NCBI GenBank assembly: GCA_025363695.1
Contig: JANYDI010000058.1
Coordinates: forward strand, 1-43,091
DNA: 43,091 nucleotides
Reading direction: 5' to 3'
From: Opitutia bacterium
GTDB lineage: Bacteria; Verrucomicrobiota; Verrucomicrobiia; Opitutales; JANYDI01
The notes below the pieces were generated by a model. It worked only from the letters and a program-made list of their open reading frames with translations, was not told the DNA's origin and did not search any database. A program made the position numbers and the translations under genes. Below are positions 3,896-43,091 of this stretch, in pieces. How positions within the stretch are numbered: position 1 is the first letter of the stretch; each line of letters starts with the position of its first letter.

Positions 3896-4594
3896 ATGCC
3901 CGAACCCGAAGAAATAAAAACCTTGTTCCAGCGTATTGCCTGGCGTTATGACCGAGCTAACACGGTCCTAAGCCTAGGACTGCACCGTTACTGGCGTTGG
4001 CGAACAGCACGGGTGGTCAAGGCCCTCAAGCCCAAGGTCGTGCTGGATATGGCCACTGGGACGGGTGATTTAGCCTTTGCCCTTGAGCGACAACTCGGGA
4101 AAACCACAAGCATTATGGGTATGGACTTTTGCGAACCCATGTTGGCCTTGGCGCGTAAAAAACAAGGGAATTCCCCTATTCCGTTTACCCTAGGCGATTG
4201 CCTAAATATTCCCCTAGATGACGGCAGTATCGACGTGGTAACTATGGCCTTTGGCTTACGGAATATTCCCCAGCGCAATAAAGCGTTTTTGGAAATCCAC
4301 CGCGTATTACGTCCTGGAGGGTTTTTGGTCCTCCTGGAGTTCAGCCAACCCAGCCGCTGGTTTGCGCCGCTGTATTGGCCGTATTTACACGCTATTTTAC
4401 CCTGGCTCTCAGGCCTCCTTACGGGCCACCAGGAAGCATATCGCTATTTGGGCCGCAGTATTGAGGGCTTTTTAAGCAAAAAAGCCCTCAGTGATGAGCT
4501 GCGTAAGCACGGCTTTGAGCCAGTAAAGGCTGTTGGGCTGTCGGCCTCCGTTGTGGCTATTCATGTAGGAAAGAAAAGGGCCAAGGGGAGCTAG
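3896..4594 (+). CDS. ubiE: Demethylmenaquinone/ubiquinone C-methyltransferase (UbiE/MenG family)
   Basis: ATG at 3896 (MPEPEEIKTLFQRIAWRYDRAN) aligns with UbiE N-termini; the track ORF start at 3839 overlaps the upstream gene. SAM-binding motif VLDMATGTGD is present, and LRPGG and LEFS motifs match the family. The stop codon lies in the loop of a repeat hairpin. Confidence 0.85.
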   Translation: MPEPEEIKTLFQRIAWRYDRANTVLSLGLHRYWRWRTARVVKALKPKVVLDMATGTGDLAFALERQLGKTTSIMGMDFCEPMLALARKKQGNSPIPFTLGDCLNIPLDDGSIDVVTMAFGLRNIPQRNKAFLEIHRVLRPGGFLVLLEFSQPSRWFAPLYWPYLHAILPWLSGLLTGHQEAYRYLGRSIEGFLSKKALSDELRKHGFEPVKAVGLSASVVAIHVGKKRAKGS

Positions 4595-4898: not shown

Positions 4899-5666
4899 TT
4901 GCAATTTTCAAAAACATGCACATTGTCCTTCCTTATAAAAACCTTCCTTACCCTTACGAAGCATGAGCTTTGGCAACTGATGACCTGGCCTGGGAGCTAT
5001 GCCATGGCTGCTGGATTCCTGGGCTTGATGGGTTTTTTGTTCTTTCTTGTCTTGGAACGATTTCTACATATATCTCAGAATACACCGCTTTTTGAGGGGT
5101 TTTTTGACTTGTTTTGGTTACCGGTTCTTTTTGGAGTCCCCTTGTTGACCTTACGGAGTTTTTCGCAGGAACGGCGTGAGGGGATTTTGGAAAGCGTCTT
5201 GGCAACCGGGGCCTCACTGCAGGCGCTGGTTTGGAGTAAATTTTTAGCCCTGTTTTCCTTTTACTGCCTTCTTTGGCTGCTGTGTCTGAGCTTTCCGCTT
5301 TGGATGCTGGGCGTACTGGGGCAGGCCGCACACAACCACCTCGATGTGGGTATGTTTGTTGGCAGTTACGCGTTTATCGCGCTCAGCGGAGCTTTTTACC
5401 TTTCTGTCGGGATGCTCCTTAGCAGCTTTACCGAAAACGCCACCCTCGCAGGCATGCTTACTTTCTGCGTTTTGTTTATCCTCATTGTAGGCTCGCAACT
5501 CCTTCCCCAGTCGCATCTGCTGCCCGACTGGCTTCAGGCACCTCTGCTGGTCTTGCAAAACCTGCCCCAGCTGGAGGACTTGCGGCATGGGATTTTAGAT
5601 TCCAGACCGGTAGTCTTTTACGGAAGCGGTACACTCTTATGTCTGACCCTCTGCAGGGGGCATTAG
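4899..5666 (+). CDS. ABC-2 type transporter permease (GldF-like)
   Basis: 255-aa polytopic membrane ORF. PLLTLRSFSQERREGILESVLATGAS matches the conserved ABC-2/GldF loop. There is no in-frame ATG upstream of the conserved N-terminal region, so a TTG start at 4899 or 4923 is likely. Start uncertain. Confidence 0.7.
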   Translation: MQFSKTCTLSFLIKTFLTLTKHELWQLMTWPGSYAMAAGFLGLMGFLFFLVLERFLHISQNTPLFEGFFDLFWLPVLFGVPLLTLRSFSQERREGILESVLATGASLQALVWSKFLALFSFYCLLWLLCLSFPLWMLGVLGQAAHNHLDVGMFVGSYAFIALSGAFYLSVGMLLSSFTENATLAGMLTFCVLFILIVGSQLLPQSHLLPDWLQAPLLVLQNLPQLEDLRHGILDSRPVVFYGSGTLLCLTLCRGH

Positions 5667-5670
5667 GTTT

Positions 5671-5942
5671 GCTAAGGGGCGCTTGCGCCCCTTAGGATCC
5701 CCTACAGGTAGCGATTTTGTGAAATACTACGTATTTCAGCAAAATCGCTACCTGGCAGGAAATACTAAGGCCTCCCACGATCCCGAAGGGATCCGGGAGT
5801 ATACCTTAAAATTCGATTCCGAAGGAATCTGTGGGGGGCTTAGTATCTTCTACCAGGTAGCGATTTTATTAAAATGCATCGCATTTTATAAAATCGCTAC
5901 CTGTAGGGGATCCTAAGGGGCACGAGTGCCCCTTAGCCCTTT
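5671..5942. repeat. Type-1 element, head-to-head double (giant imperfect palindrome)
   Basis: H1 5674-5693, H2 5705-5754, H3 5779-5793, H3' 5815-5829, H2' 5854-5903, H1' 5915-5934. Lies between the GldF-like and GldG-like genes. Confidence 0.9.
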
Positions 5943-8771: not shown

Positions 8772-8803
8772 GAACTTAGAAAATTTAAGCATTTATCAAG
8801 CTG

Positions 8804-9019
8804 CACATAAGGAGGCCTGAAGGGCCGGCAGATCGTAGCCCAGGGCGTAAGCCCTGGGTCCGGGATGGAAAATAAACCGGAGCCCTGTAAGGGCGGCACT
8901 AAAAATTTGAATAGGAGTGTCGCCCCTGTAGGGCTCAAAATCTTTTTTTACCGTAAACCCAGGGCTTACGCCCTGGGCTGTCATCTGCCGGCCCTTCAGG
9001 CCTCCTTAAGTGTGGTTTG
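8804..9019. mobile_element. Foldback MITE core, CACATAAGGAGGCC-arm subtype
   Basis: ~58-bp arms (CACATAAGGAGGCCTGAAGGGCCGGCAGAT.GTAGCCCAGGGCGTAAGCCCTGGG and its complement) around an inner hairpin GAGCCCTGTAAGGGCGGCAC...GTGTCGCCCCTGTAGGGCTC. Confidence 0.85.
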
Positions 9020-11408: not shown

Positions 11409-11431
11409 TTTTTTTCTTAAAAATTTTGCTA

Positions 11432-11606
11432 GGGGTGTGAAGAATTAATAATATAACTATTTATTTAAAACCACAAAATGAGAGGCCTGAAGGGGCGAAT
11501 GCTTGTCAGCCCAGGGCTCTCATTTTGTGGTTTGTTTTTAAATAATTATTTATCAACCCTAACGGATCCCTTAAAACAGGTTTTAAACTTAATGGTTCAC
11601 GCACCC
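11432..11606. mobile_element. Foldback MITE with collapsed interior; TA on both flanks
   Basis: TA 11430-11431, left TIR GGGGTGTGAAGAATTAA, collapsed inner hairpin 11467-11533, right TIR ...GGTTCACGCACCC, TA 11607-11608. Confidence 0.8.
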
Positions 11607-11775
11607 TAAATTTTCTCTAAAAAAACTTTTTTCCGTTTTTTATTTTTTTGCCGTTTTTTGACTAAATTTTAAAAAAATTTTTTTCGATTTTCAAAAATTT
11701 TACACTTTTTTTCAAAAAAATGCAAGAAAACATCAAAAAACGCGATAAAAGTGCGTTTTAAAATGAATACACAAA

Positions 11776-11961: not shown

Positions 11962-13116
11962 ATGAAAACACCGATACGTAACCGTTTTAATCCGATAAAA
12001 AACCTTAACTTGCAAAATCTTGGGCAGTTGCTGGATGATTTTCACGCGGGCTACCTGCACCAGACTGCCCTTGTGTGGGAGGCTATCGAGCGCCGGGACG
12101 ACGTCCTGCAGGGGCTCGTGGCGAAGCGTAAAAAGTCCTTAGCGCGGCTGGACTGGGAAATCGTGTGCTTGGAGGACACGCCTGAGGCGCACGAGCACAA
12201 GGCGTGCTTGAACACGGCCTACCAGAACATCCATGTGGGTAATGCTTACGAGCAAAACGAACAAGGCGGCTTGCGCTTGATGTTGCATCAGATGATGGAT
12301 GCTGTGGGCAAGCGTTATGCGGTGCACAACTTGGTGGTTGAGAAAACCCGGGTTGAGGCGACCTTCGTCCCGCTTTGGTTTTTTGAAAACACCCATGGGC
12401 GCTTGCGCTACGCAGGGGATGACCCTGACAACAGCAGTCAAGCGCTTGAGCCTGGCCACTGGATCATTACTACTGGGGAAGGCCTGATGGAGTCCTCGTC
12501 GATCGCCTACTTGTTCAAGCACCTGCCGTTGCGGGATTGGCTGGTGTATTGCGAACGCAATGGCATGCCTGGCGTCAAAGGCGTTACGGATTTTGCTCCC
12601 GGCTCTCCTCAATGGGAAGCCGCCAAACAAGCTGTGGCGGATTTTGGGGCGGAATTCCATGCCCTCATGTCTCGCGGCACGGATATTGAGCCTATCGACC
12701 TATCCAGTAGCGCGCAATTGCCGTACCCGGCCCTTATTGATCGCATGGATCGCGCTATGATCGCCCTGTGGCGGGGTTCTGACCTGGGCACCTTGTCCCA
12801 CAAAGACGCCACGGGGGCCTCGCTCCAAGCCGATGAAACCGCCCTCATTCAGGAAACCGATGCTGCGCTCATCTCCGAAACCCTCAACCGTCAGCTGGAT
12901 CCCGTCATCCTCGAAAAGACCTTCGGGCCTCAAATCCCCAAAGCCCGCTTTCACTTAAAGCCTCGTGATTGCCGCGATCGCCTAGCCGATGCCCAGCTCT
13001 ACCAAGCCCTCCTCAACATGGGTCTAAACCTCTCACGCTCCGAAATCCTCAAGCGCTTCAGCCTCACCGAAGCCCAAGCCAAGGACACCCTAAGCGCCAA
13101 AAAGTATGAAAATTGA
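11962..13116 (+). CDS. Phage Mu gp29-like portal protein (DUF935 family), isolated and possibly C-terminally truncated
   Basis: 384 aa. LGQLLDDFHAGYL..ALVWEAIERRDDVLQGLVAKRKKSLARLDWEIV matches my memory of the conserved N-terminal DUF935 block. No other phage gene is adjacent. Confidence 0.6.
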   Translation: MKTPIRNRFNPIKNLNLQNLGQLLDDFHAGYLHQTALVWEAIERRDDVLQGLVAKRKKSLARLDWEIVCLEDTPEAHEHKACLNTAYQNIHVGNAYEQNEQGGLRLMLHQMMDAVGKRYAVHNLVVEKTRVEATFVPLWFFENTHGRLRYAGDDPDNSSQALEPGHWIITTGEGLMESSSIAYLFKHLPLRDWLVYCERNGMPGVKGVTDFAPGSPQWEAAKQAVADFGAEFHALMSRGTDIEPIDLSSSAQLPYPALIDRMDRAMIALWRGSDLGTLSHKDATGASLQADETALIQETDAALISETLNRQLDPVILEKTFGPQIPKARFHLKPRDCRDRLADAQLYQALLNMGLNLSRSEILKRFSLTEAQAKDTLSAKKYEN

Positions 13117-13131: not shown

Positions 13132-13260
13132 AAGGGCTAAGGGGCGCTTGCGCCCCTTAGGATCCCCTACCGATAGGCGATTTTCAAAAATGCTAGCGCA
13201 TTTTATAAAAATCGCCTATCGGGAAGGTATACTAAGCCCCCTCCGGATCGCTTCGCGATC
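13132..13260 (+). repeat. Type-1 element, half copy
   Basis: H1 13139-13158, H2 13170-13222, H3 13246-13260. Preceded by GAAGGGAAAGTAAAGGGAAGGG. Confidence 0.9.
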
Positions 13261-13264
13261 GTCA

Positions 13265-13561
13265 AAACAAAATATGGTTATGTATTTATTCAAACCACAC
13301 ATAAGGAGGCCTGAAGGGCCGGCAGATACGTAGCCCAGGGCGTAAGCCCTGGGTTTATGGGTGAAAAAGATTTTGAGCCCTACAGGGGCGACACTCACAC
13401 TTTCTGAAATTTTCTTGAGTGCCGCCCTTACAGGGCTCTGGTCTATTTTCCATGCCAAACCCAGGGCTTACGCCCTGGGCTACGATCTGCCGGCCCTTCA
13501 GGCCTCCCATAGTGTGATTTGAATGAATGACTTAAGCTTAAACTAAAATGAGGACACGCCC
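13265..13561. mobile_element. Foldback MITE, CACATAAGGAGGCC-arm subtype (left TIR missing)
   Basis: Foldback core 13282-13521. Right linker and TIR ...GAGGACACGCCC end at 13561, followed by TA 13562-13563. Confidence 0.85.
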
Positions 13562-13563
13562 TA

Positions 13564-13767
13564 TTTAATCAAACCACACTTTGCCCCGTGGCCGCCGTAG
13601 CCACTTGGCGAAGGCTGGCTGGGTTTACGGGTAAAAAACAAACCAGAGCCCTACAGGGGCGATTCATTAAAATGTATCAAATTTATCTAGAAATTAAAAA
13701 TATGCCTTATATCAGCTTTAGAGAATCGCCCCTGTAGAGCTCTAGGCTCTGTGAAGGAAAATTTTTG
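13564..13767. mobile_element. Foldback MITE variant: GCCGCCG mini-hairpin module + AT-rich-core inverted repeat; right arm missing
   Basis: Mini-hairpin module ~13578-13612. Core inverted repeat GAGCCCTACAGGGGCGATTC ... GAGAATCGCCCCTGTAGAGCTC at 13646-13742. Confidence 0.75.
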
Positions 13768-13769
13768 TA

Positions 13770-14060
13770 ATGTGAACAATTAAGCTATCCAACAAACCAC
13801 ACATAAGGAGGCCTGAAAGGCCGGCAGATATGTAGCCCAGGGCGTAAGCCCTGGGTCTGTAGGTTAAAAAAGATTTAGAGCCCTACAGGGGCGACACTCA
13901 CACTTTCTGAAATTTTCTTAAGTGCCGCCCTTGCAGGGCTCAGGTTTATTTTCCAACCAAAACCCAGGGCTTACGCCCTGGGCTACATATCTGCCAGCCT
14001 TTCAGGCCTCCTTAAGTGCGTTTTAAATAAATAGTTATATTATTATTTGATCACAGCGCC
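13770..14060. mobile_element. Foldback MITE, CACATAAGGAGGCC-arm subtype, near full length; TA on both flanks
   Basis: TA 13768-13769, partial left TIR ATGTGAACAATTAA, foldback core ~13795-14018, right TIR TTATTTGATCACAGCGCC ending at 14060, TA 14061-14062. Confidence 0.85.
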
Positions 14061-14097
14061 TAATTTTTTATTTTTTTTAAAAAACTCAAAGAAAAAC

Positions 14098-16862: not shown

Positions 16863-17137
16863 GGCCAAGGGGAACTCGTTCCCCTTGGGATCCCCTTTCC
16901 GATAGGCGATTTTTAAAAATGCTGGTGCATTTTATAAAAATCGCCTATCGGGAAGGATATACTAAGGCCCCCACAGATCGCTTCGCGATCCGGGTGTACG
17001 CTTATCTCGATCCCGAAGGGATCTGTGGGGTGCCTTGTATCACCCTCCCCGATAGCGATTTACTTAAAATGCGCTAGCATTTTAATAAATCGCTATCGGA
17101 AAGGGGATCCAAGGGGACAGCGTCCCCTTGGCCCTTT
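16863..17137. repeat. Type-1 element, head-to-head double
   Basis: H1 16867-16886, H3 16976-16990, H3' 17009-17023, H1' 17111-17129, with an H2 hairpin in each half. Confidence 0.9.
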
Positions 17138-32430: not shown

Positions 32431-33273
32431 ATGGAAAACCCCTACTGGGTGCACCATCTGGATCCTGTCGCTTTGGCTATAGGGTCCACCGGTTTGGCCA
32501 TTCGCTGGTATGGGCTGGCCTATTTTGTAGGCCTACTCAGTGCCGCGGCGCTCCTATCGCTTTACTACAAAAAGCAGCGCTCACCCCTAAATCCTGAACT
32601 TCAGGCGACTTACCTGACCACGGGCTTATTCGGAGTGCTCATCGGCGGACGCCTCGGCAGTGTCCTTTTTTATGGCCTGCCTCCTTTGGAGGCCCTCCAA
32701 ATCTGGAAGCCTGGCATGGCCAGCCATGGCGGTTTTGTGGGTGTCGCTTTGGGAACGCTTTATTTTTGCTGGAAATACAAGCAACCCTTTCTGAGCACGA
32801 GTGACATCATCTGCACACTTCCCAATGTCGGGTTTTTCCTGGGTCGCATCGCAAACTTCATCAACGGAGAACTCTGGGGCAAAGTAACGACGCTACGCTG
32901 GGCCGTGATCTTCCCTCATAGCCCTCTGCCACTTCAGCCCCGGCACCCCTCGCAGCTCTACGAAGCTGCCCTCGAAGGGCTGTTTATGCTCATTTATACC
33001 CAAATACGCTTTTGGCGCAGCAACGTCTGCAACCGCTATCCCGGGCAGCTCTCCGGAGAATTCCTCTGCCTCTATGCCCTCGCACGCATCCTGTGCGACT
33101 GCTTCCGCGAGCCCGACTCCGCAAGCATCCTTCACCTGCCCAGGGGTACCTTTTTGTCGCTTATTTTGCTGGGATTCGGGGTGGGCGTAGTGGTGGTAAG
33201 TAGGGGTAGGGCTAAGTTTAAGGCCAAGGGGCGCTTGCGCCCCTTAGGATCCCCTACGGGTAGCGATTTTTAA
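32431..33273 (+). CDS. lgt: Prolipoprotein diacylglyceryl transferase
   Basis: IRWYGLAYFVG, GGRLG, GMASHGG, GRIANFINGELWG and HPSQLYEA motifs. The last ~26 aa (..SRGRAKFKAKGRLRPLGSPTGSDF) are translated from a purine-rich tract plus a type-1 repeat. Confidence 0.9.
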   Translation: MENPYWVHHLDPVALAIGSTGLAIRWYGLAYFVGLLSAAALLSLYYKKQRSPLNPELQATYLTTGLFGVLIGGRLGSVLFYGLPPLEALQIWKPGMASHGGFVGVALGTLYFCWKYKQPFLSTSDIICTLPNVGFFLGRIANFINGELWGKVTTLRWAVIFPHSPLPLQPRHPSQLYEAALEGLFMLIYTQIRFWRSNVCNRYPGQLSGEFLCLYALARILCDCFREPDSASILHLPRGTFLSLILLGFGVGVVVVSRGRAKFKAKGRLRPLGSPTGSDF

Positions 33274-36046: not shown

Positions 36047-36107
36047 ATTGCTTATATTTGTACAATTGTAGGAGTAAAGGCAAGCTTATGTTTTTTGGGC
36101 CTGTCTT

Positions 36108-36196
36108 AGGGGATCCATTAGGGTTGATAAATAATTATTTAAAAACAAACCACAAAAATTTTGTGGTTTTAAGCTTAGTTAATTGATGACACGAAC
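36108..36196. mobile_element. Foldback MITE reduced to linkers (interior fully collapsed; left TIR missing)
   Basis: ...GATCCATTAGGGTTGATAAATAATTATTTAAAAACAAACCACAAAAATTTTGTGGTTTTAAGCTTAGTTAATTGATGACACGAAC followed by TA 36197-36198. Collinear with both ends of 37471-37828. Confidence 0.7.
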
Positions 36197-36208
36197 TACT
36201 TCAGGCCA

Positions 36209-37295: not shown

Positions 37296-37429
37296 AAAGG
37301 GCCAAGGGGCGCTTGCGCCCCTTGGATCCCCTACCGATAGGCAATTTTACAAAATGCTAGCGCATTTTGGTAAAATTGCCTATCGGGAAGGGCGATACAA
37401 GACCCATCCTCTCGATCCCTACGGGATCG
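37296..37429 (+). repeat. Type-1 element, half copy
   Basis: H1 37304-37323, H2 37334-37386, H3 variant CGATCCCTACGGGATCG 37413-37429. Confidence 0.9.
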
Positions 37430-37470
37430 ATTTTTTCATTTAATTTACCTTGAAAAACCCCATTAATCTA

Positions 37471-37828
37471 GGGCGTGTGATCAATTAAATTTAAAACCTG
37501 TTTTAATAGATCCATTAGTATTGATAAACGATTATTTAAAAACAAACCACAAAATGAGAGCCCTGTAGGGGCGAATGCTTGTTAGCCCAGGGCTTTAGCC
37601 CTGGGTTTACGGTGAAAAATAAACCAGAGCCCTACAGGGGCGATTCATTAAAATATATCAAAATCTTGTTAAGTATGTTCTGTATATCAGATTATGAGAA
37701 TCGCCCTTACAGGGCTCTAAATCTTTTTTCTATGCCTAACCCAGGGCTAAAGCCCTGGGCTGACAAGCATTCGCCCCTTCAGGGCTCTCATTTTGTGGTT
37801 TTAAGCTTAGTTAATTGATCACACGCCC
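37471..37828. mobile_element. Full-length nested foldback MITE, ACAAAATGAGAGCCC-arm subtype; TA on both flanks
   Basis: TA 37469-37470, TIR GGGCGTGTGATCAATTAA 37471-37488, arms AAACCACAAAATGAGAGCCCTG.AGGGGCGAATGCTTGT.AGCCCAGGGCT..AGCCCTGGG, core inverted repeat 37627-37717, TIR TTAATTGATCACACGCCC 37811-37828, TA 37829-37830. Confidence 0.9.
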
Positions 37829-37830
37829 TA

Positions 37831-38121
37831 AATTGTTTATTCAAAACACACATAAGGAGGCCTGAAAGGCCGGCAGATACGTAGCCCAGGGCGTGAGCCC
37901 TGGGTCCGGGATCAAAAATAAACCAGAGCCCTGTAAGGGCGGCACACAAGAAAATTCCAGAAAATAGGAGTGTCGCCCCTGTAGGGCTCAAAATCTTTTT
38001 TCTACTGGAACCCAGGGCTCACGCCCTGGGCTACGTATCTGCCGGCCCTTCAGGCCTCCTTAAGTGTGTTTTTAATCAACAACTTAGGCACTCTATCAAC
38101 CCCAACCTCTCATTTACGCCC
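37831..38121. mobile_element. Foldback MITE, CACATAAGGAGGCC-arm subtype, abutting the previous MITE
   Basis: Foldback core ~37846-38070. The right end ...CTCTCATTTACGCCC finishes at 38121, followed by TA 38122-38123. The left TIR is absent, and it shares TA 37829-37830 with the neighbouring MITE. Confidence 0.8.
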
Positions 38122-38164
38122 TAAACTTTTTTTGAAAAAAATTTAATTTTTTTTAAAAAACTCC

Positions 38165-38192
38165 TTGACAATCGATATTTTTTTGGTATAAT
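38165..38192 (+). promoter_or_regulatory. Near-consensus extended -10 sigma70 promoter of an orphan transcript
   Basis: TTGACA (38165-38170), 16-nt spacer ending in TGG, TATAAT (38187-38192). An A/T-rich UP-like tract lies upstream (38124-38160). Confidence 0.65.
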
Positions 38193-38198
38193 TATGGG

Positions 38199-38611
38199 GA
38201 CAGGGACAAATCCCAGTTGGCCAGCAACAAAAAAATCATCATGAAAACTCAAAACGACCAAGCTCTTTTACTCGAAATAATGCCCGGATTCTGTACTAGG
38301 GAACTCACGACAACCCTTTCTCGCCGGCTTAAGAAGCGAATCTAGCCCGAGAACTCAGATAGTGAATACGTGTTCTCGGGCGTCCTGACCCCCTATCTTT
38401 ACACAAAGATAGGTTAGCTAAATAAAACCTTAGAGCTCCGTAAGGGCGATTCTCGACTTGATACATAATAAAATTTAATAAATAAATAAAAAAGCCTAAG
38501 CCTACAAGCATAAATCAACAAGAGAATCGCCCTTACACGCTTAAAACTTAAAAAAATCTATTGAGAATACTTCACGCTTAAAGCCCTGGATATCAAAATC
38601 CAGGGCTTTTT
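38199..38611 (+). ncRNA. Candidate orphan structured transcript (~410 nt, class unknown); could alternatively encode a 34-aa peptide (38241-38345)
   Basis: Bounded by the strong promoter and an intrinsic terminator. Hand-folded hairpins at 38203-38214, 38346-38380 and 38393-38412, and a long inverted repeat at 38440-38536. The only ORF on this strand starts at 38241 and has no Shine-Dalgarno sequence. No tmRNA, RNase P, 6S or SRP signature motifs are present. Confidence 0.4.
38580..38611 (+). terminator. Rho-independent terminator
   Basis: AAAGCCCTGGA-tatcaaaa-TCCAGGGCTTTTT: a 9-bp GC-rich stem, an 8-nt loop and a T5 run. Confidence 0.75.
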
Positions 38612-38670
38612 CATGAAAAAACGCTAAAAACCTGAAAAATATATCATAAAACCTTAAAAACATTATAACA

Positions 38671-38922
38671 AGGCGTGCTCCTAATCGATAATATAACTAT
38701 TTATTCAAAACACAAAATGAGAGCCCTGAAGGGGCGAATGCTTGTCAGCCCAGGGCTTTAGCCCTGGGTTTGGCATAGAAAAAAGATTTAGAGCCCTACA
38801 GGGGCGATTCTCACAACTTAATATATAGAATATATTTAACAAGATTTTGGTACACTTTAATGAATCGCCCCTGTAGGGCTCTCATTTTGTGTTTTTAAGT
38901 TTAGTTAATTGTTCACACGCCT
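38671..38922. mobile_element. Foldback MITE, ACAAAATGAGAGCCC-arm subtype with right-arm deletion
   Basis: Degenerate left TIR AGGCGTGCTCCTAATCGATAA, complete left arm, core inverted repeat 38791-38881 joined directly to TCATTTTGTG, right TIR TTAATTGTTCACACGCC. Confidence 0.8.
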
Positions 38923-38956
38923 TAACCCCAATCCCCCCCTTTTATTGACAGCAACC

Positions 38957-39117
38957 GATCGCGAAGCGATCTGTGCCGCCTTCGCCAAGGCTTCGGCGCG
39001 CCCATGGGAGGCCCTTGTATCACCCTTCTTGATAGGCGATTTTTATAAAATGCATCGCATTTTTAAAAATCGCCTATCAATAGGGGATCCAAGGGGAGCT
39101 GGCTCCCCTTGGCCTTC
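38957..39117 (-). repeat. Type-1 element, half copy carrying a ~32-nt nested insertion
   Basis: H3 38957-38971, inserted mini-hairpin module 38976-39007, H2 39029-39080, H1 39091-39110. Overlaps the murJ 3' end. Confidence 0.85.
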
Positions 39118-42204: not shown

Positions 42205-42252
42205 AAAGGGAAAGGGAAAGGGAAAGGGAAAGGGAAAGGGAAAGGGAAAGGG
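42205..42252. repeat. Perfect hexanucleotide microsatellite (AAAGGG)x8 fused to the tip of a type-1 element
   Basis: Counted by hand: eight uninterrupted AAAGGG units running into H1 (42248-42267). Located ~65-110 nt upstream of the hisS start codon. Confidence 0.9.
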
Positions 42253-42370
42253 GCGCTGGCGCCCCTTAGGATCCCCTACCGATAGGCGATTTTTAAAAAT
42301 GCGATGCATTTTATAAAAATCGCCTATCGGGAAGGGTGATACTAAGGCCTCCACAGATCGCTTCGCGATC
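42248..42370 (+). repeat. Type-1 element, half copy
   Basis: H1 42248-42267, H2 42279-42330, H3 42356-42370. Confidence 0.9.
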
Positions 42371-42394
42371 GAACATTATCAATATAAGTGTTTA

Positions 42395-42433
42395 TTTAAA
42401 CCACACTATGGGAGGCCTCCTTAACTGTGGTTT
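42395..42433. repeat. Collapsed CACATAAGGAGGCC-arm foldback (mini hairpin)
   Basis: AAACCACACTATGGGAGGCC|TCCTTAACTGTGGTTT: the outermost ~18 bp of both arms are joined at an AGGCCT microhomology. Confidence 0.7.
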
Positions 42434-42454
42434 GTTGTTATATAAAAAATACAA

Positions 42455-42890
42455 TACGATCATTCTGATGCTATTTTTGTATTTAAAATCACATACATAT
42501 AAGTTGTTTATCAACAACAAAGTACACTTTGATCGCCCTGAAAGGGCGAAGGATGATAGCCCAGGGCGACTCTTGGGTCGCCCTGGGTTTGCTGTGAAAA
42601 AAGACTAGAGCCCTACAGGGGCGATTCTTAAAATGTATTAAATTTATCTTAAAATTAACAAAATATTGCAATAAAATTTAAAATATATGCTCTATATCAA
42701 CTCTATTGAATCGCCCCTGTAGGGCTCTAAATCTCTACCTACCAGAACCCAGGGCGACCCAAGAGTCGCCCTGGGCTATCATCCTTCGCCCCTTCAGGGC
42801 GATCATTTTGTGTTTTGAATCAAAAAGTTAGACTGCCTTCAGCACGATAGACTTAGACGCATGTGATTTTTAAAGACAAAAATAGCATCA
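42455..42890. mobile_element. Third foldback subtype (GATCGCCCTGAAAGGGCG arm) nested inside a larger inverted repeat
   Basis: Outer inverted repeat ATTCTGATGCTATTTTTGTATTTAAAATCACAT (42462-42494) / ATGTGATTTTTAAAGACAAAAATAGCATCAGAAT (42861-42894). Inner foldback ~42515-42815 with core inverted repeat 42608-42727. Confidence 0.75.
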
Positions 42891-42896
42891 GAATTA

Positions 42897-43091
42897 GGGC
42901 GTGTGATCAATTAAGCTATCAACAAAACGCACATAAGGAGGCCTGAAGGGCCGGCATATCGTAGCCCGGGGCGTAAGCCCTGGGTTTACAGGTGAAAATT
43001 TTTTGAGCCCTACAGGGGCGACACTCGTATTCAAATTCTGAGTGCCGCCCTTACAGGGCTCCGGTTTGTTTTTCATATCAAACCCAGGGCT
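42897..43091. mobile_element. Foldback MITE, CACATAAGGAGGCC-arm subtype, truncated by the window end
   Basis: TA 42895-42896, then TIR GGGCGTGTGATCAATTAA, linker, left arm, inner hairpin, and the start of the right arm. Confidence 0.85.

Follow-up and report, generated by a model that had tools for sequence, protein, structure and literature searches.

The contig JANYDI010000058.1 of an Opitutia bacterium (assembly GCA_025363695.1; its full 43,091 nucleotides were analyzed and are herein referred to as the window) carries at positions 37471-37828 a 358-bp non-coding element that is bounded by terminal inverted repeats (TIRs), flanked by the dinucleotide TA on both sides and occupied by a long foldback. 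We conclude that this element is very probably a miniature inverted-repeat transposable element (MITE) of the IS427 group, within the IS5 family of insertion sequences (ISs), that is mobilized in trans. The two arms of its foldback match Acido-Lenti-1 (RF01687), an Rfam family described as a candidate RNA, and their arrangement bears on what that family is.

The element begins and ends with two perfect 18-bp TIRs (GGGCGTGTGATCAATTAA, identical at 18 of 18 positions) with TA immediately outside each, as an earlier note on this DNA had described; a repeat finder extends the terminal repeat to 24 nt at 96% complementarity (I6). Within the TIRs lie arms of 64 nt that are 97% complementary (I3) and inner arms of 33 nt that are 76% complementary (I4), around an AT-rich, asymmetric and unpaired center. 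The nested foldback that the same note had proposed is thereby borne out, and the element is not fully symmetric, the gap between TIR and arm measuring 55 nt on the left side but only 9 nt on the other. Folding of the full-length element gives -121.9 kcal/mol for DNA (z = -18.5 vs shuffles) and -206.6 kcal/mol for RNA (z = -19.1). Its coding capacity amounts to short or TTG-start open reading frames (ORFs) inside the palindrome, with no transposase-sized ORF or plausible gene. A sigma-70-like promoter was sought in the AT-rich center and none was found, so the arms would be transcribed by read-through only; the possibility that divergent promoters in the center drive both arms as small RNAs (sRNAs) was rejected for the same reason. 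TIR length, small size without transposase coding and multiple dispersed copies are all those of a MITE, as had been suggested before. From left to right, the element comprises the following features.

37469-37470, left flanking TA, a putative target-site duplication; the context (CTA on the left, TAA on the right) implies a CTAA target, which fits YTAR
37471-37488, plus strand, left TIR (GGGCGTGTGATCAATTAA), identical to the right inverted repeat (IRR), and at 17/18 positions to the left inverted repeat (IRL), of complete IS427-group ISs
37489-37543, plus strand, left subterminal 'frame d', AT-rich, 55 nt, recurring at 11532-11588 and 36100-36147
37544-37607, minus strand, left arm, with Acido-Lenti-1 on the minus strand at 37559-37605 (37.2 bits; gathering score 37)
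37614-37646, plus strand, inner left arm, an A-run and then the small hairpin in its second copy (GAGCCCTACAGGGGCG) (I4, D3)
37647-37697 (approximate limits), AT-rich asymmetric center
37698-37730, plus strand, inner right arm, complementary to 37614-37646
37738-37801, plus strand, right arm, with Acido-Lenti-1 on the plus strand at 37740-37786 (37.8 bits)
37802-37810, plus strand, right subterminal 'frame c' (TAAGCTTAG), common to the copies ending at 36196 and 38922
37811-37828, minus strand, right TIR, exact in the 18-mer search
37829-37830, right flanking TA, read from the sequence

The affiliation with the IS427 group is carried by the ends. When the exact 18-mer was scanned across 185,579 species genomes, 30 loci were recovered, nearly all of which have TA just outside the match, and in several of them the 18-mer is followed by the antisense C-terminus of a transposase (...RHLIENFFAKLKQYRAIATRYDK...VIWLN-stop) that matches Pfam DDE_Tnp_1_2. 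Complete ISs with these ends are found in metagenomic loci (L036 602-1458, L050 772-1626 and L063 247-1101) and twice on Leptolyngbya plasmids, where they are annotated as IS5-family transposase. These ISs measure 833-857 bp, carry GGGCGTGT(G/C)ATCAATT(A/G)(A/G) at both ends, are flanked by TA on both sides and encode two ORFs in frames 0 and -1 that are joined at an A AAA AAG slippery site. The fused transposase matches the NCBIfam model NF033580 (transpos_IS5_3, IS5 family) at 303.8 bits (1e-90; cut-off 110) as well as Pfam DUF4096 and DDE_Tnp_1. The curated reference for this arrangement is ISPssp5 from the Psychrobacter plasmid pP32BP2, an ISfinder-deposited member of the IS5 family and IS427 group of 837 bp with a TA direct repeat, IRL GGGTGTGTCATCAATTA and IRR GGGCGTGTCATCAATTA (PMC6514802), whose ends, with TA at both, we confirmed in the pP32BP2 sequence. 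The TIR in the window is identical at 18/18 positions to the IRR of L036, L050 and L063 and at 16/17 to that of ISPssp5, and when the MITE and IS ends are aligned the terminal 18 bp are near-identical. Among the elements with these ends, the hallmarks of the IS427 group are present together: ends that match bona fide inverted repeats, a two-ORF frameshifted DDE transposase and a 2-bp TA direct repeat.

The flanking TA is itself well supported. TA makes up 7.4% of dinucleotides (0.074) in the intergenic zones that hold these elements and yet stands outside 9 of the 10 recognizable ends in the window (binomial P = 6e-10), which rules out simple A/T richness, raised earlier as a possible objection, as the cause. 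It also stands outside 32 of 42 distinct 18-mer occurrences in other loci and at all 10 ends of the five complete ISs, and is invariant in the 19 aligned ends (9 MITE ends and 10 IS ends). The base preceding it is C or T in 30 of the 32 TA-flanked occurrences elsewhere, implying a YTAR target like that of IS5. Because of the homology with ISPssp5, we take the TA to be a probable target-site duplication.

IS630 and Tc1 elements also duplicate TA, and the earlier note had, from the TA alone, assigned the element to IS630/Tc1-mariner; it would then be a MITE whose TA is duplicated by an IS630-family transposase recognizing these TIRs. This affiliation does not survive, since all complete elements with these TIRs encode an IS5-family transposase: the proteins between these TIRs match IS5, IS982 and IS4 models only, and none matches an IS630 model at E <= 0.01. 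TA flanks on both sides do not discriminate in favor of IS630, as the IS427 group, with curated ISPssp5 carrying the same inverted repeat and TA direct repeat, duplicates TA too. We therefore consider an IS630 origin extremely improbable.

Loci that carry the same 18-bp end with TA are assigned, among others, to cyanobacteria, Chloroflexia and alphaproteobacterial lineages (Paracaedibacteraceae, Finniella). In cyanobacteria, the identical TIR and TA serve several MITE families that are unrelated to one another (L014 at ~4010-4064; L013, L018, L019, L024-L026, L028 and L030, from the Pleurocapsa metagenome-assembled genome CAKZYI01 and Cyanobacteria bacterium P01_G01_bin.19), among them a micro-MITE of ~55 bp, and some copies have a small GC-rich hairpin inserted inside. 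In L060 (Ga0137420_1372528), two exact 18-mers stand inverted and 4.5 kb apart (621-638 and 5131-5148); the sequence inward of each is near-identical for >100 bp and the flank is TG, not TA, and the pair may delimit a larger element or composite.

The element belongs to a family that is abundant in its own neighborhood. A search with the 18-mer allowing <=3 mismatches gives 5 matches in the window versus 0.03 expected, and allowing <=4 mismatches 9 copies versus 0.2 expected; a third exact 18-mer lies at 42897 and degenerate ones at 36179 and 38905. Together, at least nine related copies or TIR-bearing ends, mostly decayed, are present in the 43 kb, in addition to those of L017, a 1,561-bp contig of the same lineage (binned as 'Actinomycetes'). 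There, directly against a type-2 foldback, stands a sister element of 340 bp whose symmetry is perfect, whose TIRs are exact and whose two ends are each flanked by TA. The lineage shows no fewer than three core types and ~5 end frames. The sister subtypes recognized before are real (8797-9019, 13284-13528, 13794-14024, 37846-38075, 42518-42817 and 42920 to the contig end), and the list of recurring TIRs with TA stands as evidence of multiple copies, with corrections in detail: the left end at 13766-13783 lacks a clean TA and has 5 mismatches, of the end at 38108-38121 no more than ~ACGCCC is left, the end at 11431 has a 1-nt deletion, and a good copy at 38905-38922 (2 mismatches, TA at 38923-4) had been missed. 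The copies in the window, beside the focal element, are as follows.

8797-9019, type-2 foldback whose sole trace of a TIR is a remnant on the left
11429-11608, type-1 deletion derivative; both TIRs degenerate, TA at both ends, interior lost between CAGGGCT direct repeats
13284-13563, type-2 copy, with a right TIR only (13544-13561), then TA
13766-14062, type-2 copy with two TIRs, both degenerate, and a clean TA on the right
36100-36198, collapsed type-1 copy with frames d and c, right TIR (3 mismatches) and TA; foldback shrunk to AAACCACAAAAATTTTGTGGTTT
37831-38123, type-2 sister abutting the focal element; Acido-Lenti-1 pair at 37858-37904 (minus) and 38011-38057 (plus), 49.9 and 49.3 bits, with GTAG-tagged hairpins; left TIR absent, right end degenerate (ACGCCC, then TA at 38122-3)
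38664-38924, type-1 copy in inverted orientation; right TIR at 38905-38922, then TA; left TIR decayed and one arm partly deleted
42518-42817, type-3 foldback, first Acido-Lenti-1 stem lengthened, tag ATAG, between two outward-facing degenerate TIRs
42895-43091, plus strand, type-2 copy, TA and exact left TIR, cut by the contig end

Elements cluster and abut one another in AT-rich, promoter-proximal DNA (37471-38123, 42380-43091 and L017), which fits a TA target. The same arm is 88-98% identical between copies versus 76-85% for left and right arms within a copy, and copies occur in both orientations, a combination that points to copying of the imperfect foldback as a whole unit. Concerted evolution or re-palindromization of the arms was considered and is unneeded, given that same-arm identity between copies exceeds the identity of the arms within a copy. 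The modular arm swapping of the earlier note is to be restated: the arm modules are variants of one motif, Acido-Lenti-1, whereas a mosaicism of frames and cores is real, as the type-1 core is joined to frames a, c and d, and frame a is found with both type-1 and type-2 cores. Three 'empty' frames were examined as candidate unoccupied insertion sites for a core, and this was rejected: two are deletions between direct repeats (AGGCC at 42398-42433 and CAGGGCT at 11470-11535), and the third collapsed copy, at 36148-36171, is of ambiguous origin. At the type-1/type-2 junctions (37829, L017 158 and 42500), excising the type-1 element and one TA restores no clean sister end. Three IMG/VR scans for more copies from the lineage gave no match for two arm patterns and one unrelated match for a TIR pattern. 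An isolated, degenerate innermost layer (small hairpin, AT-rich center, small hairpin), without Acido-Lenti-1 stem 1 and without TIRs, lies at 38425-38545, inside the predicted 38165-38612 unit described below.

Rfam assigns 14 matches in the window to Acido-Lenti-1 at or above the gathering score (37 bits), comprising both arms of the focal element and 12 further sites, with sister copies reaching up to 60.6 bits. The matches invariably occur in pairs, of which the left member reads on the minus strand and its right partner on the plus strand, so that the 3' hairpin of the motif faces outward on both sides. The window motif shows the two hairpins and the conserved GGCUA, CG and CU positions of the family. 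Types 1 and 2 have the same stem 1 (CCCAGGGC/GCCCTGGG), which is longer in type 3; in stem 2 a compensatory change distinguishes the types (GGCC/GGCC vs GCCC/GGGC), and the linker is wholly different between types. In each arm the small hairpin is repeated once more, closer to the center (family D3), and the same h2-spacer-h1-linker-h2 plan is present in a hypersaline-mat sequence of the original RF01687 seed alignment. Acido-Lenti-1 was described from Lentisphaerae and Acidobacteria, where it lies 'sometimes near group II introns', as a likely trans-acting RNA to which no function was assigned, its rating as a likely RNA being based on covariation (Weinberg et al. 2010). In its seed, copies from a single Lentisphaera genome predominate, most of them arranged in same-strand tandem arrays and a few as minus/plus pairs. 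The window differs from this description in its verrucomicrobial host, in the invariable outward inverted pair inside a TIR-bounded element and in the third hairpin of each arm. Our literature search found no paper linking Acido-Lenti-1 with repeats or transposons.

The combination of this TIR with Acido-Lenti-1 occurs only in this lineage; elsewhere the two are separate. The motif stands without this TIR in metagenomes as well as in Koribacter and Lentisphaera, Weinberg's Acido-Lenti-1 flanks were found to lack the TIR altogether, and no Acido-Lenti-1 was found in 20 other TIR-bearing loci (114 kb), against densities of 14 copies in the 43-kb window and 3 in 1.5 kb of L017. A link between the two outside the lineage was accordingly dismissed.

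The arms resemble a further class of repeats, the GTAG repetitive extragenic palindromic (REP) sequences, together with REP dimers, REPINs and bacterial interspersed mosaic elements (BIMEs). As published, GTAG REPs have 6-9-bp stems and frequently form head-to-head dimers able to fold as one hairpin, are abundant in the Planctomycetes-Verrucomicrobia-Chlamydiae (PVC) group including Opitutus terrae, have dimers nested in longer palindromes in Anabaena, and are thought to be spread by REP-associated tyrosine transposases (RAYTs). Read on the other strand, hairpin 1 of the window motif consists of (G/T/A)TAG, then an 8-bp GC stem with a 4-nt loop (in full, (G)TAG-CCCAGGGC), and every pair is head to head (left minus, right plus) with the tags outward. 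The likeness thus extends from a short GC-rich hairpin after a (G)TAG tag to the head-to-head dimer, the structured spacer, the nesting of the dimer in a longer palindrome and the abundance in the PVC group. Nearly all type-2 arms have GTAG as their tag, whereas type 3 has ATAG and the focal element TTAG/TCAG; the spacer of the latter is ~130 nt versus 20-100 in GTAG REPs; moreover, GTAG REPs lack the DDE-type TIRs that the window element carries, and a Pfam scan of 35 plausible ORFs in the window found no RAYT or Y1 transposase. Given the focal tag and the lack of a RAYT on the contig, we regard this as functional resemblance to REPs, not membership.

Two alternatives concern the interior of the element. 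One is a two-tier composite, in which a REPIN-like core, spread by RAYT/HUH activity on its single-stranded hairpins, came to lie within IS427-type MITE frames by capture or by insertion; two unrelated enzymes would then be involved. This overlaps the IS427-group reading rather than replacing it, and we hold it to be the less likely account of the interior, if one to be kept in mind. Hairpin 1 with the GTAG tag of most type-2 arms fits the published definition of GTAG REPs, one core type occurs with various end frames and one frame with various cores, and motif and TIR each occur without the other outside the lineage; however, besides the missing RAYT and the focal TTAG/TCAG tag, the 'empty' frames are direct-repeat deletions rather than unoccupied sites, the pattern of arm identities needs whole-unit copying only, and the frame/core mosaicism can come from homologous recombination at the shared AAACCACA box. 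Closely related, and only slightly less doubtful, is the wider proposition that Acido-Lenti-1 is in general the arm of a REP/REPIN-like mobile repeat of PVC bacteria and Acidobacteria and not an RNA gene, here fused into IS427-type MITE frames.

The other alternative holds that the arms are genuine Acido-Lenti-1 sRNA genes, or cis-acting RNA elements for mRNA stability or processing, maintained by selection, and that the TIRs are incidental relics. Rfam matches that reach the gathering score (and in sister copies climb to ~60 bits), the compensatory change in stem 2, the covariation-based rating by the original authors and the position of the elements in transcribed-looking intergenic DNA beside a perfect promoter would all be expected of an RNA. 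Covariation between repeat subfamilies is equally expected of DNA hairpins recognized by a protein, though, and the focal arms score just 37.2 and 37.8 bits against the cut-off of 37. The element contains no promoter, the motif is always an inverted pair inside a repeat with no fixed relation to genes, and 14 copies in 43 kb is the behavior of repetitive DNA. On balance an RNA role is improbable, and the data suggest instead that Acido-Lenti-1 here behaves as a module of repetitive, probably mobile DNA that looks like a tagged REP hairpin.

Several observations weigh against the derivation of the element from an IS427-group IS. Similarity to the ISs ends ~20-24 bp from each tip in the alignment of 19 ends. 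A metagenome scan for the joined flanks (ATTAATC-TA-AATTGTTT) did not find an empty site with a single TA, so the TA could formally belong to the end and not be a duplication; comparison of orthologous sites was likewise negative, the two closest relatives of the host (HisRS 66% and 63%) being non-syntenic and without Acido-Lenti-1. In several sister copies no more than one TIR is recognizable, and the type-3 foldback is situated outside TIR-bounded DNA, indicating that the foldback core is not strictly tied to the ends. The partner IS has not been placed in the lineage, for which genome and metagenome scans yielded no other contig than L017, and a search for transposase homologues returned mostly ~1-kb contigs, leaving the IS without a place in Verrucomicrobiota. 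On the contig itself, no DDE or Y1 transposase was found among the 35 plausible ORFs, which represent housekeeping genes and leucine-rich-repeat (LRR) proteins instead; this agrees with the earlier note, and it means little given that the contig is only a 43-kb fragment.

We hypothesize that the 18-bp ends serve as binding and cleavage sites for an ISPssp5-type DDE transposase, made from two ORFs by a -1 frameshift on A AAA AAG, which would insert the element at TA in a YTAR context and duplicate the TA. With no transposase on the contig, this enzyme must act in trans, presumably from a full-length partner IS elsewhere in the genome, and the element appears to have been active recently. The ~260-bp imperfect foldback would be cargo copied with the ends as one unit, each arm comprising the two-hairpin Acido-Lenti-1 and an extra small hairpin and facing outward like a head-to-head REP dimer. 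Copies would have landed side by side in AT-rich DNA near promoters, and slippage deletions would have eroded the long palindromes, the long hairpin being probably responsible for the frequent internal deletions. By analogy with Correia and ERIC elements, the foldback may also affect read-through transcripts.

Among known systems, the closest are ISPssp5 and the other IS5/IS427 ISs (Leptolyngbya plasmid, L036, L050 and L063), which share with the window element the terminal 17-18 bp (GGGCGTGT[G/C]ATCAATTA), the TA flanks and the YTAR-like context; these ISs are ~835-857 bp long, whereas the window element has 358 bp, no transposase ORFs and an unrelated foldback as its interior. Correia elements are also TA-flanked. 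The structured MITEs as a class (Correia/NEMIS of Neisseria, ERIC, RUP and the cyanobacterial Nezha; listed in PMC3733652) are likewise small, non-coding, TIR-bounded, multi-copy and intergenic with long hairpins, but the window element differs in its TIRs, in having an identifiable source IS family, in its Rfam two-hairpin interior and in its verrucomicrobial host. MITEs of IS630/Tc1-mariner have the TA flanks in common with it, whereas its TIRs and their associated transposase are those of IS5.

The contig's HisRS is 51-55% identical to those of Opitutales, Puniceicoccaceae and Coraliomargarita, its best named matches, and at most 66% to anything in the database; judged by sequence, the host is an uncultured, deep-branching Verrucomicrobiota (Opitutae-like) bacterium. 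A cyanobacterial origin, at which the style of the repeats and the genome-scan matches had hinted, was rejected on the strength of these HisRS matches and of the repeat HIP1 (GCGATCGC), which is not enriched in the window (1 occurrence versus 0.57 expected). A second and far commoner composite repeat, unrelated to the TIR element, occupies ~25 sites in the window (for example 5674-5934, 13139-13270, 16870-17116, 37304-37430, 39020-39110 and 42248-42370). It consists, in order, of a hairpin AAGGGG(NNC)TNG(GNN)CCCCTT with compensatory stem variants (36 strand-matches versus 0.03 expected), AGGATCCCCT, a ~75-bp palindrome (CCGATAGGCGATTTT...AAAATCGCCTATCGG, 12 pairs) and a hairpin GGATCGCTTCGCGATC. 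Most genes are followed immediately by this repeat, which in some cases reaches into their 3' ends, as at 33226-33245, within the last 25 codons of lgt; it resembles BIME/REP sequences and possibly functions as a terminator.

Just right of the type-2 sister lies a perfect sigma-70 consensus promoter (38165-38192, 12/12, with an extended -10 TG), which opens a predicted unit of ~410 nt (38165-38612) that ends at a strong intrinsic terminator (38580-38612), contains a 30-codon ORF (38244-38336), matches no Rfam family and has a fold z-score of -5.95. A 24-nt AT-rich stretch left of the focal element (37438-37461) is 79% identical to one right of its type-2 neighbor (38141-38164); the shared stretch reads ATTTAATTT..TT.AAAAAC.CC (D6) and is possibly a duplicated promoter-upstream segment. 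Elsewhere, a (GGGAAA)n microsatellite of ~7 units stands between hisS and a repeat cluster (42206-42250), and the ORF at 11962-13116, which encodes a Mu-type portal domain (PF06074, 3.9e-55) and lies among housekeeping genes with a repeat cluster to either side, is possibly what is left of a prophage.

The element is thus of an ordinary kind, an additional IS5/IS427-derived MITE in an uncultured verrucomicrobial lineage, and the general understanding of MITEs is unchanged by these results. TA flanks alone do not indicate IS630/Tc1, since the IS427 group leaves the same footprint and it is the TIR sequence that decides. The end shared across phyla points to a widespread IS clade that has spawned several unrelated MITE families. 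Should the tentative REPIN-like interpretation of the arms be true, the element would be a hybrid non-autonomous element offering substrates for two unrelated kinds of transposition, by DDE chemistry at the TIRs and by HUH chemistry at the hairpins, with frames and cores reassorting. For Acido-Lenti-1, an Rfam family without a function since 2010, these copies provide a concrete genomic context, in which its nature becomes testable through RAYT association and insertion polymorphism.

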